This document shows positions 4,186 through 16,900 of a stretch of DNA of 20,000 nucleotides, in pieces; position 1 is the first letter of the stretch; every line of letters begins with the position of its first letter. The notes beneath the pieces were generated by a model. The model did no database searches. It was given only the letters and a program-made list of their open reading frames with translations, and was not told where the DNA came from. The translations under genes were made by a program, and so were the position numbers. Source of the stretch: Albugo candida. Its lineage: Eukaryota. The stretch is from assembly GCA_040437565.1 (NCBI GenBank), contig JBDOQK010000053.1, positions 246,079 through 266,078 on the forward strand, written 5' to 3'.

Positions 4186-4216
4186 TTGTTAATATTTTCT
4201 GTATTGATTGGTCGGA

Positions 4217-5131
4217 ATGCTCGCTCAAGTAAAATGCACTCGAAATTTACTCTGTTCCAACTGGCAAAGTAATGGACAATTAACCATGCAAATTGCAGGC
4301 TTTTCAAGTAGAATTGACCATGCGATAACACAGATACCTCCTCCGTCTCCTGGTCGAGGAATACTTGGGCGCGCTGCTAATTTCGACATCAGAAAAAGCA
4401 AAAATGGGATCAAATCGTGGAACTGGCTATTCAGTTTGCTGGGATACAATAACAACGATGATAAATTGTATCGGGAATCCGTCAAACTACTACAAAGCTG
4501 TGTGAATCAGTCGGCCGTACCGAATTTGTATCATGCGATTCGACTACGTCCCGATTTTCGCGGTCAGCAAGCACTTTTAATGGCTCATGTTTGGCTCGTT
4601 CATCGTCGACTTGGAAAGCAAGGAGAAGCTGGGAGAGTCTTACAAGAAGGTGTGTTTGATCGTCTTTGGGAAGAAACGGTATCGCGTATTCGTCATCAAA
4701 AGGTGTCTGAACTCACAGTCAACAAATATTTGAAACAAGTGCAGCAGGTGTGCTTTAATGCTTGTATTGCTTACGATACGGGTCTTGAGAGAAGTAAGGA
4801 TGATTTCAACACAGCGATTCGATGTCATCTGTTGGCAGAAGACGACTTACATGTTCCAGATGAACAGTACGTTCAGATGACGAGTAAGTATCTTTGGCAG
4901 AATATGAAAATGCTGGACAAACTTGACGAGAAATACCTTAAGAAAGGAGTCATTCCTTGGGATCACGTACCGGATATAGCGGGCTTCAAGCAGCTCGATG
5001 TCGTACTGATCGGACAGAAATTTGGAAATTGGAGGACTGCGTTGGACAATCGTGGCAAGATGTATTACTGGCACTCTGAGAGTCGATTGTCGGCTTGGGA
5101 GCTTCCAGAAAAGGACACAATGGCGCAGTAG
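4217..5131 (+). CDS. CBP3: Ubiquinol-cytochrome c reductase chaperone CBP3/UQCC1 family protein with C-terminal WW domain, ~304 aa
   Basis: Intronless ORF with DF......LMAHVWLVHRRL, LWEET..RI, VNKYLK and AYD.GL motifs of the Cbp3 domain. C-terminal W.TALD.RGKMYYWH.ES..SAWELP fits the WW consensus. Start could also be a later ATG. Confidence 0.88.
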   Translation: MLAQVKCTRNLLCSNWQSNGQLTMQIAGFSSRIDHAITQIPPPSPGRGILGRAANFDIRKSKNGIKSWNWLFSLLGYNNNDDKLYRESVKLLQSCVNQSAVPNLYHAIRLRPDFRGQQALLMAHVWLVHRRLGKQGEAGRVLQEGVFDRLWEETVSRIRHQKVSELTVNKYLKQVQQVCFNACIAYDTGLERSKDDFNTAIRCHLLAEDDLHVPDEQYVQMTSKYLWQNMKMLDKLDEKYLKKGVIPWDHVPDIAGFKQLDVVLIGQKFGNWRTALDNRGKMYYWHSESRLSAWELPEKDTMAQ

Positions 5132-5177: not shown

Positions 5178-6941
5178 TCACATTTTTGGAACGGCAAATG
5201 GACCTCCACCGATACCGACATCAAAACATTGTGCATCTTGTGACTTTTCAAGGGATTTTACTTTGCCACCTGATAGCTCCACACTTTGTTTTCTTTGGTT
5301 TGATCTCTCGAAGCGGCTGCGACAAGCCCATAATCCCAACGATGGATTCGAGATATAATAAAACTCTTCAGTGCCATCTTTGGTTGTGTTGTAACCTTCT
5401 TTGAGATCATCAATCGAGTACTTTTGTAGCATTTCTGCCAAATCTCCGTATTCGAACCCAACGCTTTCAATCTCCTCTTGGGTCAAGAATCCTGTACAAT
5501 ATCGGATACGAAATCGACCTTCAGAGGATCCATGAATCAGGTGGGCAGCAGCGCTCAGATTTTTCATCAGATCGCGGCTCTGGTCCAAATACTCAAGTAT
5601 CTCCTATCGATGCTACATCTCAGTATTGGTAAGTCAGTCCCCTTTCTTACCGGAGTTGTTCGGTACCCATACTTTCGGATCAGCTCGTCGATCCGCAAGT
5701 CTTCACCAAAGTGCTTGACGCCAGGTGCAAGTATGATCAATTCACCGTCATCCGCGATCGCCATCCTTGTACGATAAATACTCTTATTGCCCAGCCAAGT
5801 CGATTTGTACTCCTCTGGATGCAGATAGACCACAACCTGCAAGCATTCTCGATAATCGCAATTTTGAATGAGACTTTTCGCGTACTCTTTTCAATGGTAA
5901 TTCGAGTAACTTGAAATTAACTTCCAGAGATAACGCGGACGCTCGTAGAAAGCATTCTTCGTCATCACCGATGAAAACTCCACGGGTTACAAGCTGTCCA
6001 TCCTCGCTACAAGCCAGACATTGGAATGGCGAAATCAACGAATATTATACGACTTACGCTCGTGAAATTACTGTTTGAATGTATAACAGAGGCAGATCAT
6101 TGAGGAAATGCTCGGACGCGTAATTCAGCACTTGACGTAATGGATTATTGGCACGCCCCATCATACGTTCCATGCCGTACACTGCCCCGATGAAATGGGA
6201 AAAATTGATAGCATCACTTCCTCCTGTGCCGACAAAAATATTTTTGTTGTAATTTGCCATTCCCATCACTTCGTGTGGAACTACTTGACCGATCGAAATG
6301 ATCAAGTCATGCTTCCCATCCCATATCTGCAATAGAAATTGGAGTCAGATAACTTCTATAGAGACGATAACGCACTAGTTTGTTGATTTGAGCTGGCCAT
6401 GGTTCATGAACTTTGCCATCGCTGGCGGCCGCGACTAACTCCGATGGAACCATGCCAATTGTCACAACATCATTTCTAGCAGTAACATTTTGTGAATGGT
6501 CAAGTGATCATGAACATTCAGCACCGCCAATCGTGAACGCGGAACAAGTGTTTTGGAATCGAGCCATACATCTTCAGATAAAGTCAGATACTGCACGACT
6601 TGCACAAAATCACGATACCTTTGTAATTTCGCTATCTGTCATTGGAGCGTGTGTCCCAAGAGCGGGTAAGACATCCACAATCGCGTCCTGTAAATGATTA
6701 TATAGGAATTGTGATATGATACCGGCATTTCTATCGCATACACGTCCATCATTGATCAAATCATCCCAGAACACAACTCGTACGAATGATAGCGGGTGAA
6801 ATCCGGGGGAACAAGCATTACGCGCTGCAGCGTTTTCCCCGTGTTGGCTGCGTATTGAGTGAGCGCATTTCTGACTATGTCGCCGAGTTGCTTGTCTGTG
6901 ATTATGGAATTCTCGCTCCCTTCCGCGTGGTATAAACCCAT
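5178..6941 (-). CDS. LarA-superfamily (lactate racemase/DUF2088) nickel-pincer-type hydroxyacid racemase/epimerase homologue, 8 exons, ~472 aa
   Basis: Exons 6941-6784, 6730-6619, 6571-6525, 6475-6376, 6326-6058, 6006-5886, 5836-5651, 5603-5178 with seven GT-AG introns of 47-53 nt splice into one open frame. Motifs PPDFTR, PALGTH.PM, HDWR, GQVVPHEVMGMANYNKN.FVG.GG, INFSH, STWLGNKSIYRTRMAIADDGELII.APG and AAHLIHGSSEGRF. Confidence 0.9.
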
Positions 6942-6994
6942 TTACTCCAATCAAATGAGCATTTTGTGCATCACGACCCCCGGCGTATGATACA

Positions 6995-7882
6995 ATGAAC
7001 ACTGCGGCAGCAAACATCGTTTCTGAGCTATCCAAAGCGGAATTTGGTTTGCACATCACCGTGAAAGTCGAAAGTGTTCTATAAACACTTTGTTATCATA
7101 GGAACTGGAGAAAGCGCACTTCAAGTGGTATTCACGGGGCAAATTGAGTCGATCCTTGCAAGTAGTACACATACAAGCTCATAGCTATCTGACAATTTCT
7201 GTAAAGATTCCTGGTGTATCAAATCTCTATTGCCGATACACGATCACGAGTGGGTCGGACTGGAAGCTTCAACACGTAAAGCATCTGTCGACCATTGACA
7301 GAATTTGTTGAGACTCACTGCTGAACGGATTAGGGATTTGATACCGGGCTGTCACAAATCGCGTTTGGAGGCGGTCGTTGGAAGGATGGAATCACGCTGA
7401 ATTTTCCCATTGACATTTCCTATACTACTACAAACTTGTTTGGTTGGCCTCGTGTTGTTATCAGTGTTAGTCTAGGCCTGGGTCAGGAGTCAAGCGAGGC
7501 TGATAGTATTTGCAGGTCTATGGTCTGGATGTGCTCGGAAGAGATGTTGTGAGAGGATATGGGACCACATATTTGCCAACAGCAGGATGCAATATTGTTC
7601 GTGAAATTCCGTTATTTAAACCACAGTCTTCCTCTCTGCTGCAGCATTGGACAGCCATTTTGACTGCGACCCAGCCTGAGGTACGTCACTTTTCTACAAC
7701 TGAAACGAATGCTGAGGTAGAACACTTTTTTTTAGTATTATGATTCCAGATTCATTGCTCAGAATGAAGGAAGAGCAGTTACACGAGTCTCGTCTGGAGG
7801 AATAGCTGTCCTGAGAATAAATACTATGACACGAGGGATAATGGAGCACGGATATACCATCAGACGTCCTAATGCTCGTTAA
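6995..7882 (+). CDS. B9D1: B9 domain-containing protein 1 (ciliary transition zone, MKS module), 6 exons, ~206 aa
   Basis: Exons 6995-7046, 7102-7157, 7207-7275, 7334-7465, 7516-7680, 7736-7882 give GQIES, LYCRY....GSDW, GLSQI, NFPIDI...TN.[33 protein letters not shown].LQ and PEYYD...IAQ.EGR.VTRV, colinear with B9D1. Exon 1 is the least certain. Confidence 0.93.
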
Positions 7883-12585: not shown

Positions 12586-13958
12586 CTACAACAAGTCCTC
12601 TTCATTTGTTGCCACAAGTTTGTATGTTTTTACTTCGCCAGTATCGATGGTTACATTGTAAGCCCTCAAAAACGAGGAACCAAGTACCCACTCGTTGCTT
12701 TCCCCCGTTGATTTCCCAATGAGAAGAGTACATATATCACCTTCAGCGATTATAAACTGAGCCAATTTGAATTGAATTCGTTGCCCATGATGTCCAAAAT
12801 CAACTTCGACTTTGATTTTGGACATCATGGGCAACGAATTCAATTCAAATTGGCTCAGTTTATAATCGCTGAAGGNNNNNNNNNNNNNNNNNNNNNNNNN
12901 NNNNNNNNNNNNNNNNNNNNNNNNNNNNNNNNNNNNNNNNNNNNNNNNNNNNNNNNNNNNNNNNNNNNNNNNNNNACTTCGCCAGTATCGATGGTTACAT
13001 TGTAAGCCCTCAAAAACGAGGAACCAAGTACCCACTCGTTGCTTTCCCCCGTTGATTTCCCAATGAGAAGAGTACATATATCACCTTCAGCGATTATAAA
13101 CTGAGCCAATTTGAATTGAATTCGTTGCCCATGATGTCCAAAATCAAAGTCGAAGTTGAGTGGATGATAAAATATGTCTCTTTCATTCTCAATGGAATCA
13201 GCAATCAAACTGCATCGTCCCCGGATGCGGTTGTGTACTAGTTCCAATTTAAGATGTTCAAGATTTCCGCATTGTACGATCTGTTGGAAAATACGAGGCG
13301 GAATTCCGGATTCTATCATACCAAGTTGGAATGCAACGTTCTGATCCGCATAAGAAAACAACAGAAATTCAATGCCCGTCTTCTGGAAGTCGTTATACGT
13401 CAATATCCTTGAGGATTGTTGATTATCTCCAAAGTGAAGTCTAGGACCTTTACCCTTTACCCATGAAAATGAATACATCCCCGGATTTTTCGTAATATAG
13501 ATTTGGGGATCAATACTCGTCTCCGGAAAAGGGTACAGCTCCTTCCTTTCAACCAACTTTTGCAAAGAATTCCATTCTAGTTCCCAGCCTATATTGTATG
13601 TACCGGAACCAAATTTGTACTTAAGAAGAGCTTCTACCTTGATGCTGCTGGATGCGGCTGACTCACTTCCGTGTGTAGTCTCCCAGATCAACTCTTGAGC
13701 ACGAGATGGATTGTCCTCGATGGCGAGGATCAATTTATACAGCTTGCCTTTAGAATCGGCGGTCTCTTTCAAAGATCCATTACTCGAAAACATCACAGGG
13801 GGAGTGATATGGACTTTTAATCCCGTGTAATGGCGCTCATGCGTTTGAATGAATGATGCAGGGATCATTTTGACATGACATGCATTTAGAAATTGGTCAT
13901 GTGAGTGTATTACTCCTACGAAAACAAGGCCATACATTGTGAGGAAAGATGCTTTCAT
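12586..13958 (-). CDS. Secreted pepsin-like (A1 aspartic protease fold) protein lacking catalytic DTG/DSG motifs, ~342 aa after collapsing the gap duplication
   Basis: 13958-12976 joined to 12631-12586 is one frame. Signal-peptide-like MKASFLTMYGLVFVGVIHS; MYSFSW.....RLHFG, C.LLI and WVLGSSFLRAYNVTID match pepsin-family structural motifs (FSF.L...G.L.FG; WILGD.FLR.YY.VFD). Confidence 0.75.
12632..13147. repeat. 172-bp duplication (12632-12803 = 12976-13147) around a 100-N gap
   Basis: Same sequence at offset 344 up to ...tccaaaatcaa, after which the left copy folds back. Confidence 0.9.
12740..12875. repeat. Perfect 64-bp inverted repeat with 8-nt loop at a contig end (fold-back, probable artefact)
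   Basis: 12740-12803 is the reverse complement of 12812-12875, and the arm ends exactly at the N gap. Confidence 0.92.
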
Positions 13959-16900
13959 CGTTTCTACAGGTTTTGTTTTAACTAATTGGGTTAATTCTCA
14001 CCACGAATTTTCAATACATGGAGTTGCTTAGATGTCCAACTAGCAGTATGTACATCAAAGAAAGTACTCGGCTATCTTCTGTTTACATCGACCAATTATT
14101 CACAATTCTTTAGGTATTAGCTCCTGTGCTCAGAAGGTTTGCTCCTTTTAAATTACTTGTAAGCACCGAAGCGCACCTTCTACATTATACTGCGACTGTA
14201 AAGGCTCATATCTCTGTTAAAATCAGATGCACTGGAAAATGCTTCTGATCTGGCAACTCTCTTATTCTATAAAATGGCCCTTTCTTATACTCTGAGAGAG
14301 GGAACGAATATTCTTTCTTCCATGAGTGATGCGCTGATTACTTGCGTACGTTTAGAAATCGTGAAGTGAAAACCTCGAATCCAACTTGTCCAAAGCCAAG
14401 TTGGATTCGAGGTTTATAAGACATACAATACTTCAGGGACATTCGCTGAGTTTTCGCCCCTGCTTTACATGCCAGCCTAAACATGTTTTATTACACGGGA
14501 CCATGGATCACGCTGGCGATCAATCTCGAAGTTTGATATCAAGAAAGTCTTCATCCGCGTTTGTATGATATCCCGGGTCGCTTCACGTAGAGTGGAACAG
14601 CGCTCTTTGTGTATACTTTGGGTGCATTTTCCTCCTTGAGAATTTAGTGAATAGCCCGCAGATGTTCCTCTTGTTGAGGCTGTAACCTCAAATCAAATCA
14701 TTCGTCCAAGCCGTTTTAGGGCCCAAGATTTTAATCACAGCTATGTGAAACATGTGCCACGTGCCATTGCCATCAAAGTAAGGAGGACGCAGTAAATGCG
14801 CTTCTGGAATTATCATCGTACGAATCTCGTAAAGTTTTTATGAATAAAATGGGCATCATCAGAAGACTTGCCTTTGTGGCCGTGTTACGATATGCTCGCT
14901 ACAAATTTTCTGGCTCTGGTATTTTTTTGCTTAAGACATGCAAGTTAGACAAGGAAGCGCAACGGAATTTCCTTGCAACCCGAACGTTGGAGTTTCTCAG
15001 TTACTTGGAGTAGATTCGTGGACCTCGGTGCTTGTGGCACTGTATCTCAAGAGCATCAATCAGGCCCACATTATTGGGATATTCGCAGCATGCGTAGTGA
15101 CTGTGGTGAAACGTGGCATTTCCAGACCGAGTTTTCGAGAAACCTGCTGGCCAAACTGTAGTGTGTCACATCTCAAAGCGAAATCGGTGTGCACCATATC
15201 CCTGAGGCCTTACATAGTTCGACTACTTTGGTATATTTTGTAGAGAACACTCGCTACAAATTGGTCTGTGGTCTCAATTGGATTTCCCAATAACAGAAGG
15301 TATAGCGTGATGAGATTCTACCAAGCTAGGTGCTCCCGGTTGCACGATATTCTGACAACCTTTTTCGGCCCATGCTACTCTTATGAGCTTTTGGGTAGCC
15401 ATGTTGCTCGTAATCATCGCCTCTGTGGATATTTGGCACATTTGGTGAATACTCGCTCTTTCTTCCATCTTTGTCATCGGCTTCTTTGGACGGAAGCGTC
15501 AGCCTGTACATGGAGATAGTTTCTAGGAAGCATAGAAAAAGCACATGTCTCAGATGACTTGTATTTGACATTGACGAGGACGAATATTGCCGGTTTACTG
15601 GAAGGCGGTAGACGTGGATCCCAGACCTTTTACACGGCACAAGAATATGCGAGGTCAACGTTCCATGGGTACACCCGACGATTGGCATTACGGTGAAATC
15701 GAAGTTATGATCTGATTGCCACCTGTCAGAAGCATCAGGAGCACAGCTATGACAAAATCATCTCGCCTCCAGCACATTGTCATGGCTTATTTAGACCCAT
15801 CAGAGGTAGTCGACTCCACTTCGAGTCTCTCCACTTGTCAAATGCTTTTCATCGAATGCTCATGCAACCTAATACAATTTTGTTGCAGCATCGCAGACCA
15901 TAGGGCTCCGATTCCTGACTCCATTCATATACGTTCTCAATCGACGCAATTCGAGCTTCATGCCCATTGACTGCAAGGATGAATTCTGTTTGAATCGAAT
16001 CGACTAAGCTAATAGTCAGTTCAATCGGTTGATAGCACAACGCCAAATAACTATTAAATTAATTGAACGTGAGCGATTGAGCGTTCGTTTAACGTGCATC
16101 GTGCAAATGATGGGATGTTGATCAAAGCTGCTTTTTGCACTTGAAATGACTTCATGATTTAGTGTTCTCCTGGCAATCAAGCTAGGGGAAATGGTCACGT
16201 AGTTGTTATGGGAAGTATAATGAAGCCGAGTTGATCGCCAATGATAGTCAGTACATATTCAAAGCTCGTAGATATATTCAGTGCGTCCCGCATGATGATT
16301 GATTGAGGTTTGCGTTTGTGAGGAATATTCATCAAAACTTCCAATTTCCTATCAGAAAGCCGGGAAGCAGTACAATATATTGCGACTCTGGAGTTTCTTT
16401 GAGCTATTTGCACTACTTTGTACAAGGAGATGCCATTTGCATATACTGCAACCCAGGTTTTCTCAATCCAGACACCCTTTTCTACCATCGCCAGCTTAAT
16501 CGCCCGTACGTTCAAATTCGACATATTGCAATGACATTCCTTTATAAACCTCTCCGTTACACGATGCTATCCTTTTCAACGTGAGCAAGGGGTCATAGTA
16601 TTGACGCGAGCAAAATCAATAAGGAGGCTTGCTTCCAGTGAATGAATTATCTTGATCGAAGCAAACTTTCATGCTAGCTTTGGCGATAGTTCAACAATTG
16701 GAAGTGTGCACAATCCATTACGCAAAGCAGTCGGCCTCCTTAGGAAAACAAACAAAACGAGTGGAGACAACTCAATAATTGTCCGTCACTTTTATCAATT
16801 GGTTCGCGTCAAATATACAGCATAGGTGAGACAATAATGTGCAAGATGTTCCAAAAGCTAAACCTTTTCACAGAGTGTTTACTGATTGATACGAAGTGCA

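Follow-up and report, generated by a model that had tools for sequence, protein, structure and literature searches.

An intron-split LarA-family gene of Albugo candida, a likely mannonate/gluconate epimerase, in a genome with genes for the nickel-pincer nucleotide cofactor

The window analysed here is a stretch of 20,000 nucleotides from the white-rust oomycete Albugo candida (contig JBDOQK010000053.1, positions 246,079 to 266,078). At 5178..6941 its minus strand contains a LarA-family gene of the group 18 or GntE type, in which 472 codons and a stop codon are distributed over eight exons. Exon 1 (6784..6941) begins with the ATG at 6941 and carries D47 and R50; exon 2 (6619..6730) carries H80, the first catalytic His by alignment. 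Exon 3 (6525..6571) comprises 47 bases and is followed by exon 4 (6376..6475) and by exon 5 (6058..6326), which contains H157-E158-V159, K167 and H183. Beyond exon 6 (5886..6006), exon 7 (5651..5836) contributes W283, N286 and K287. Exon 8 (5178..5603) encodes A351-H352 and the C-terminal tail, whose glycine-rich motif (5199..5222, minus strand, residues 459-466) lies behind a variable linker, and the stop codon ends at 5178. All seven introns are bounded by GT..AG and measure 53, 47, 49, 49, 51, 49 and 47 bases. The 472-residue frame is open once the exons are joined; each intron, if kept, causes a frameshift or a stop. The A. candida genome assembly (G000) yielded a single copy of the gene.

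Splicing was checked in four of the eleven listed sequencing runs; none is recorded as RNA, and X1 was taken for RNA by guess. In one contig of X1, all seven introns are absent at the modelled sites. Runs X7 and X8 are colinear with the locus and retain the introns; across 2301 bases they differ from it by 23 and 25 substitutions, respectively, and by no indel. X5 yielded pieces of the locus only. The LarA-family gene of A. candida is thereby confirmed as real, intact and spliced, and the structure of eight exons and seven small introns drawn up in an earlier note on this DNA stands. The neighbours are ordinary eukaryotic genes for prefoldin, an acyl-carrier protein, an rRNA-processing protein, Cbp3/UQCC1 and a B9 protein.

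Several features of these neighbours were noted in passing. The LarA gene and the gene for the B9-domain (ciliary transition zone) protein are arranged head to head with 53 bases between the start codons (window 6941-6995), and the first B9 intron (7046-7100) is likewise spliced out in the X1 contig that carries LarA. The stop codon of the Cbp3/UQCC1 gene at 5131 is 46 bases from that of LarA. This chaperone (window 4208-5131, plus strand) shows a C-terminal WW domain with an E-value of 4e-5, which is below the cut-off. At 12855-13997 (minus strand) there is a weak aspartyl-protease match.

Contamination is said to occur in published A. candida assemblies (10.1101/2020.02.12.941195), and the nearest non-oomycete relatives of the LarA protein, many of them bacterial, are 58-65% identical to it. 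The view that the gene is a bacterial contaminant or a pseudogene nevertheless has a negligible probability. The gene has seven spliced introns and eukaryotic genes on both sides, its GC3 of 0.46 is like that of other genes of the assembly (0.43-0.49), and its product is the sister of the A. laibachii protein within an oomycete clade. The spliced contig and the tree refute this view, in agreement with the earlier note, which had dismissed bacterial contamination on account of the introns and the surrounding housekeeping genes.

The search with Lar_N (PF09861), which had been proposed as a check of family membership, gave a divided answer: the full-length oomycete orthologues P0008 and P0024 exceed the cut-off of 23.3 bits (42 and 44 bits), whereas exon 5 alone, a single exon of the split gene, reaches 18.4 bits, and a genome-wide profile search of the assembly missed the intron-split gene. 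The NCBIfam model NF052594 is the best match for all seven exons tested (of eight; exon 3 is too short). Its scores for these exons add up roughly to about 504 bits, with the caution that such a total is not a whole-protein score and that the cut-off is 500; the orthologues P0014 (561 bits) and P0234 (649 bits) exceed this cut-off. The lactate racemase model NF033504, whose cut-off is 460 bits, gives no more than 22-24 bits for the oomycete orthologues.

In a homology search with exon 5, all 8000 candidates scored were relatives. Among the 120 matches listed, the best named ones are from oomycetes (Pythium, Saprolegnia, Aphanomyces, Albugo laibachii, Plasmopara, Phytophthora, Bremia and others), followed by proteins of Bacteroidota and Planctomycetota, some of which are named 'D-mannonate epimerase'. 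The spliced protein is 80% identical to that of A. laibachii and shares 316 of 469 residues (67%) with P0234 of Phytophthora nicotianae. The relatives also include records named 'M96 mating-specific', which are longer and look like merged gene models, and P0399, a group-18-type homologue fused to a domain of the N-acylglucosamine 2-epimerase family. In the database model of the A. laibachii orthologue, P0014, the conserved D47 is replaced by Glu, and the tail motif and a few residues around exon 3 are missing; this may reflect an error of gene model or sequence rather than decay.

All active-site motifs that the earlier note had named were found, namely D47-F-T-R50, G-T-H80, P-H157, K167, H183 and K287. 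The residues D47, R50, H80, H157, K167, H183 and K287 correspond to D72, R75, H108, H174, K184, H200 and K298 of LarA1. The positions were mapped through Dataset S2 and 4NAR, the sole PDB match of the A. laibachii orthologue (E 1e-29), whose aligned residues are numbered as given for GntE2 of Thermotoga maritima in PMC7583248. Of 90 homologues, 87-89 retain each of the catalytic or NPN-binding residues, and 82-90 retain each of the 14 positions checked. The substitution in ANYNK to which the note had drawn attention is present; however, the Asn after Ala163 occurs in 82 of the 90 homologues and is the norm of the subfamily. With respect to specificity, E,V,A,H is the GntE signature and F,F,W,E/Q that of lactate racemase, according to PMC11770544. 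The window protein contains the former (E158, V159, A351, H352), and the latter set is absent from it.

The C-terminal tail motif D-x-G-[VI]-G-G-G-P was present in 40 of the 302 stored proteins scanned, and all of these that are named belong to oomycetes; eight more of the 302 possess a related GGVGGW end. The glycine-rich tail is thus found in oomycete and probable eukaryote homologues and is absent from the named bacterial ones. A function in docking or as a lid is conceivable.

The closest characterised relative is LarAH15 of P. nicotianae; both it and the Albugo protein are LarA homologues from oomycetes and belong to the GntE branch. The paper by Urdiain-Arraiza et al. (PMC11770544) describes LarAH15 as a narrow D-gluconate/D-mannonate 2-epimerase (GntE), lists one hexonate pair only in its substrate table, and reports for D-mannonate a KM of 9.4 mM, a kcat of 111 per s and a kcat/KM of 1.2 x 10^4. 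The enzyme was assayed with added NPN that had been made in vitro by bacterial enzymes. By that account, an activity had not been confirmed for any eukaryotic LarA homologue before LarAH15, the GntE branch is stated to contain all eukaryotic LarA homologues, and oomycete GntEs are proposed as fungicide targets. Some NPN-synthesis genes and LarA homologues in unicellular eukaryotes are also cited there, and the sections on LarAH15 are without an account of oomycete larB, larC, larE or a pathway. We assume that LarAH15 is identical with P0234, which shares all 14 checked positions with the Albugo protein except 165 (Phe for Tyr). The Albugo protein is likened by sequence to LarAH15, for which the activity has been measured. 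The novelty that the earlier note had attached to a eukaryotic LarA homologue is very likely lost, because one has been characterised in P. nicotianae.

Group 18 of the LarA homologues and GntE2 were defined by Desguin et al. (PMC7583248), and mannonate/gluconate interconversion has been shown for LarAH15, GntE1 and GntE2 (PMC11770544, PMC7583248). The model NF052594 bears the name 'nickel-dependent putative hexonate epimerase'. When compared by eye with the first group-18 row of Dataset S2, the Albugo protein matches at 19 of 20 signature positions; the sole mismatch is a Leu for Val at the I220 position. In contrast to the group 18 operons, the Albugo gene is eukaryotic, split by introns and not part of an operon, and its product has the extra C-terminal glycine-rich tail. 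GntE2 of T. maritima (LarAH20, PDB 4NAR) has the same catalytic set and loop Glu as the Albugo protein, but is distant from it, as the E-value given above indicates. LarA1 of Lactiplantibacillus plantarum has the NPN-binding and catalytic residues and the LarB, LarE, LarC pathway in common with Albugo; its specificity positions are F,F,W,E/Q, for which the Albugo protein has E,V,A,H. The model match, the GntE signature and the group-18 positions agree with the suggestion of the earlier note that the substrate is a sugar acid rather than lactate.

By analogy with the biochemistry of LarA and GntE enzymes, R50 would bind the phosphate of NPN, K167 may tether the cofactor and H183 would complete the nickel site, with H80 and H157 as the putative base and acid. 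A hydride would be transferred from C2 of the substrate to the cofactor and back onto the other face of the substrate.

The origin of the gene was studied with a tree of 65 rows (a quick tree had 101), from which partial proteins and near-copies were left out and in which the outgroup does not form one side of a branch. The 16 rows labelled oomycete, including P0003, form a clade with a support of 100/98. Within it, the window protein is sister to that of A. laibachii; it stands next to Peronosporales and Pythiales and is separated from Saprolegniales. The oomycete clade in turn has four probable eukaryote rows, one of them from EukProt, as its sister (98/99). Next outward, in a branching order that the tree leaves open, are two rows judged to be diatom-like and a clade rich in Planctomycetota; a single origin of all 22 eukaryote-like rows was not rejected (p-AU 0.37). 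Judging from this tree, the LarA gene was already present in the oomycete ancestor, is older than Albugo and has been inherited across the oomycetes, with probable relatives in other microbial eukaryotes. The earlier note had proposed an old horizontal acquisition, and the age is borne out by the oomycete clade. A transfer from bacteria is inferred from the nesting of these sequences among bacterial rows.

The genes for cofactor synthesis, for which the earlier note had considered an unlinked eukaryotic set as one option, were found by a search of the genome. larB lies on contig C7 (about 595,712-596,994, plus strand; 8 exons, 290 residues), larE on C50 (about 193,138-191,971, minus strand; 6 exons, 299 residues) and larC on C33 (from 235,552, minus strand; 8 exons), its C-terminal end falling into a 100-base assembly gap. 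The models were composed of GT..AG pairs that keep the frame open, and some boundaries have alternatives. All three genes are unlinked and intron-split and have open frames and intact family motifs. They are clustered neither with each other nor with pathway genes; their neighbours encode myosin, ribosomal L27e and sugar, amino-acid and choline transporters.

The LarE model agrees with P0121 in length and by blastp, and P0121 exceeds the TIGR00268 cut-off (192 vs 150). A database protein recorded for Albugo candida is identical to the LarE of this genome. The same-species LarC P0252, in which the C-terminal end is whole, exceeds the cut-offs of both LarC models (197 vs 90 and 140 vs 50). LarB, searched as three exon pieces, matches NF033503 only, with 161 bits over 172 of 290 residues, the cut-off for the whole protein being 175. 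In the LarE model, the SGGxDS loop is located at 36, a CxxC at 106-109 and a further Cys at 200; this CxxC-C motif, which occurs in all 12 named eukaryotic LarE proteins checked, defines the [4Fe-4S] type of LarE (PMC9283937). Unlike in the L. plantarum system, the Albugo LarE is accordingly of the iron-sulfur and not of the sacrificial type. Among 120 listed of 371 matches, the relatives of LarC include 11 named oomycete genera; those of LarE include Achlya and several diatoms. As side observations, the larC gene (L016 5053-4342, minus strand) encodes a long His-rich insert in the N-terminal part of the protein, which is longer still in Phytophthora LarC, and the P0252 model reads through intron 1, which is without an in-frame stop. 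P0270, recorded as a lactonase-LarC protein, has the appearance of two genes merged into one model; no lactonase gene is located beside the Albugo larC.

The N-termini of the four proteins differ in charge. Within the first 30 residues, LarB and LarE are basic (5 Arg/Lys, 1 Asp/Glu), LarC and LarA acidic. The mean N-terminal net charge is +2.6 for 12 named eukaryotic LarE, -0.4 for 16 prokaryote-type LarE and -3.5 for 14 oomycete-type LarC proteins, and the N-terminal extension of the Albugo LarE is no longer than in some prokaryotes. These values provide hints, to be taken as a lead only, of mitochondrial presequences on LarB and LarE.

The retained binding residues together with larB, larE and larC support the NPN chemistry envisaged in the earlier note. 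The note had also considered a scavenged cofactor or a cofactor-free role; both are unnecessary because the genome holds larB, larE and larC. A protein that works without self-made NPN, either cofactor-free or with cofactor from leaf bacteria, while larBCE serve another client or decay, is accordingly very improbable. Other clients are conceivable, since NPN-using folds beyond LarA exist (aldo-keto reductase and ornithine cyclodeaminase; PMC13524815), and a search of the assembly for a NicO-family nickel transporter gave no match, a weak negative for intron-split genes. Against this, every cofactor-binding residue is conserved, the three frames are open with their motifs intact, LarC occurs across oomycete genera, and urease is present in the genome, from which it follows that A. 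candida uses nickel. Taken together, the LarA gene likely encodes a nickel-dependent mannonate/gluconate epimerase in a genome with its own NPN genes, an assignment that we hold with good confidence on the basis of the sequence comparisons.

The metabolic context of bacterial homologues was examined in six loci. As L026 nearly duplicates L025, it was set aside, and the scan covered 36 of the 55 frames in the remaining five. Near the epimerase gene, UxaC, D-mannonate oxidoreductase and gnd were each found in two of five loci, UxaE and gluconokinase each in one. An N-terminal kinase of the shikimate/gluconokinase type is fused to 4 of 14 long homologues scanned, and the one tested exceeds the gluconokinase cut-off.

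In A. candida, a candidate partner is encoded on contig C10 (about 488,480-485,148, minus strand; L033 5481-2149), where five exons specify a long-chain dehydrogenase fused to a uronate isomerase of the Bh0493 type. A 100-base gap with a repeated stretch within this gene is an assembly artefact. The gene was first reached through a weak mannitol-dehydrogenase match. Its C-terminal half matches the uronate isomerase Bh0493 of Bacillus halodurans (E 3e-44 and 3e-59) and keeps the residues corresponding to H26, H28, W325, W326, D355 and R357, which we take to be functional in that enzyme. Bh0493 presumably also takes glucuronate; its title reaction is the conversion of galacturonate to tagaturonate. 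The N-terminal half is a long-chain polyol dehydrogenase, the profile of which is about equidistant from E. coli UxaB (55 bits), YdfI (49) and UxuB (41), with a slight lean to UxaB; its only NCBIfam match, to tagaturonate reductase, falls far short of the cut-off. A metagenome search with the isomerase part yielded 42 loci, 13 of which match the dehydrogenase part as well; for many of the others the sequence is too short for a decision. When the entire fusion exon was used as the query, the metagenome scan gave no match. An Atlas cluster of 78 eukaryotic members resembles the fusion (score 0.79, a lead only). The same two-domain architecture, a mannitol dehydrogenase joined to a Bh0493 homologue, was noted in Phytophthora sojae by Nguyen et al. 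2008, as cited in PMC4017328, where nothing beyond the fusion itself is mentioned; the literature searched did not connect it with an NPN epimerase.

Myo-inositol oxygenase (MIOX), which makes D-glucuronate, is present in the genome. Searches of the assembly for classical UxaC were empty and missed the divergent Bh0493-type isomerase; those for UxuA, UxaA, UxaE and KDPG aldolase gave no match either. An empty family search carries little weight where genes are split, as the same method missed larA and the isomerase. For the SDR-type mannonate oxidoreductase of Bacteroidales, the assembly yielded generic SDRs only, with at best 32-33% identity. An intron-bearing gluconokinase fragment occupies C7302:1-307 (L019), a 307-base contig of doubtful origin; its GC3 is 0.35, compared to 0.43-0.49 for five genes of the assembly, and it possibly stems from another eukaryote in the assembly. 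The gluconokinase candidates on large contigs encode HslU, glycerol kinase and an AAA ATPase instead, and another match was a distant PFK. Further searches of the assembly revealed no gluconokinase beyond the fragment and no match for a PfkB-type kinase. 6-Phosphogluconate dehydrogenase has been reported for Phytophthora and Pythium (PMC6493774).

The simplest reading of this gene set is a route from glucuronate via fructuronate and mannonate to gluconate. D-Glucuronate, supplied by myo-inositol oxygenase or from host glycans, would be converted to fructuronate and then mannonate by the fused isomerase/dehydrogenase; the NPN epimerase would turn mannonate into gluconate, which would enter the pentose-phosphate pathway as in the bacterial group-18 operons. 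The same role, feeding mannonate into that pathway, has been proposed for T. maritima GntE2 (as cited in PMC7583248). In comparison, the Albugo partners are unlinked and the kinase is uncertain; moreover, the Albugo isomerase is of the Bh0493 type and fused to the long-chain dehydrogenase, and no UxaE was found. That this route is the job of the epimerase is a tentative proposal, to which we give somewhat less than an even chance because the reductase leans to UxaB, the reaction of Bh0493 is on galacturonate and gluconokinase was found on a doubtful contig only.

These three points are also compatible with an NPN enzyme whose physiological substrate is another hexonate or uronate, such as D-altronate formed from galacturonate via the fusion protein, or L-gulonate/L-idonate, with mannonate being simply the substrate that was assayed in vitro; the label 'putative hexonate epimerase' of group 18 fits as well. 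This alternative is improbable, since LarAH15 turns over D-mannonate well (see the kcat/KM cited above from PMC11770544), the bacterial relatives adjoin D-mannonate oxidoreductase, gnd and gluconokinase, and the search for altronate dehydratase was without a match. Earlier publications already cover the class of enzyme, the existence of eukaryotic members and the fusion protein. New is the candidate physiological route by which mannonate would be fed to the NPN epimerase. A full-text literature search, outside which most subscription papers lie, contained no description of an oomycete larBCE set and no link between the fusion protein, MIOX and the NPN epimerase.

A bolder version of the glucuronate route, which we consider rather unlikely, holds that oomycetes, the gene-poor obligate biotroph Albugo among them, possess a full nickel-dependent shunt that leads to gluconate from either myo-inositol or uronates of the host and, in addition, build NPN across two compartments, with LarB and the iron-sulfur LarE in mitochondria and nickel insertion by LarC as well as the epimerase in the cytosol. 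If true, this shunt of MIOX, fused isomerase/reductase and NPN epimerase would differ from the glucuronate routes of animals, fungi and plants.

To our knowledge, few nickel enzymes are known, and all tests of the eukaryotic LarA member to date have relied on cofactor that bacterial enzymes had produced. Intact larB, larE and larC beside a single LarA homologue in a gene-poor genus argue for a eukaryote that makes this organometallic cofactor itself. The loss of a very large number of metabolic gene families has been reported for Albugo, amounting to 168 in A. laibachii (10.1101/2020.02.12.941195); the retention of larB, larE, larC and the LarA gene despite these losses argues that the reaction matters in the plant. 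With larA, larB, larC, larE and the fusion protein, a short and testable list of genes is available for the missing physiological role.
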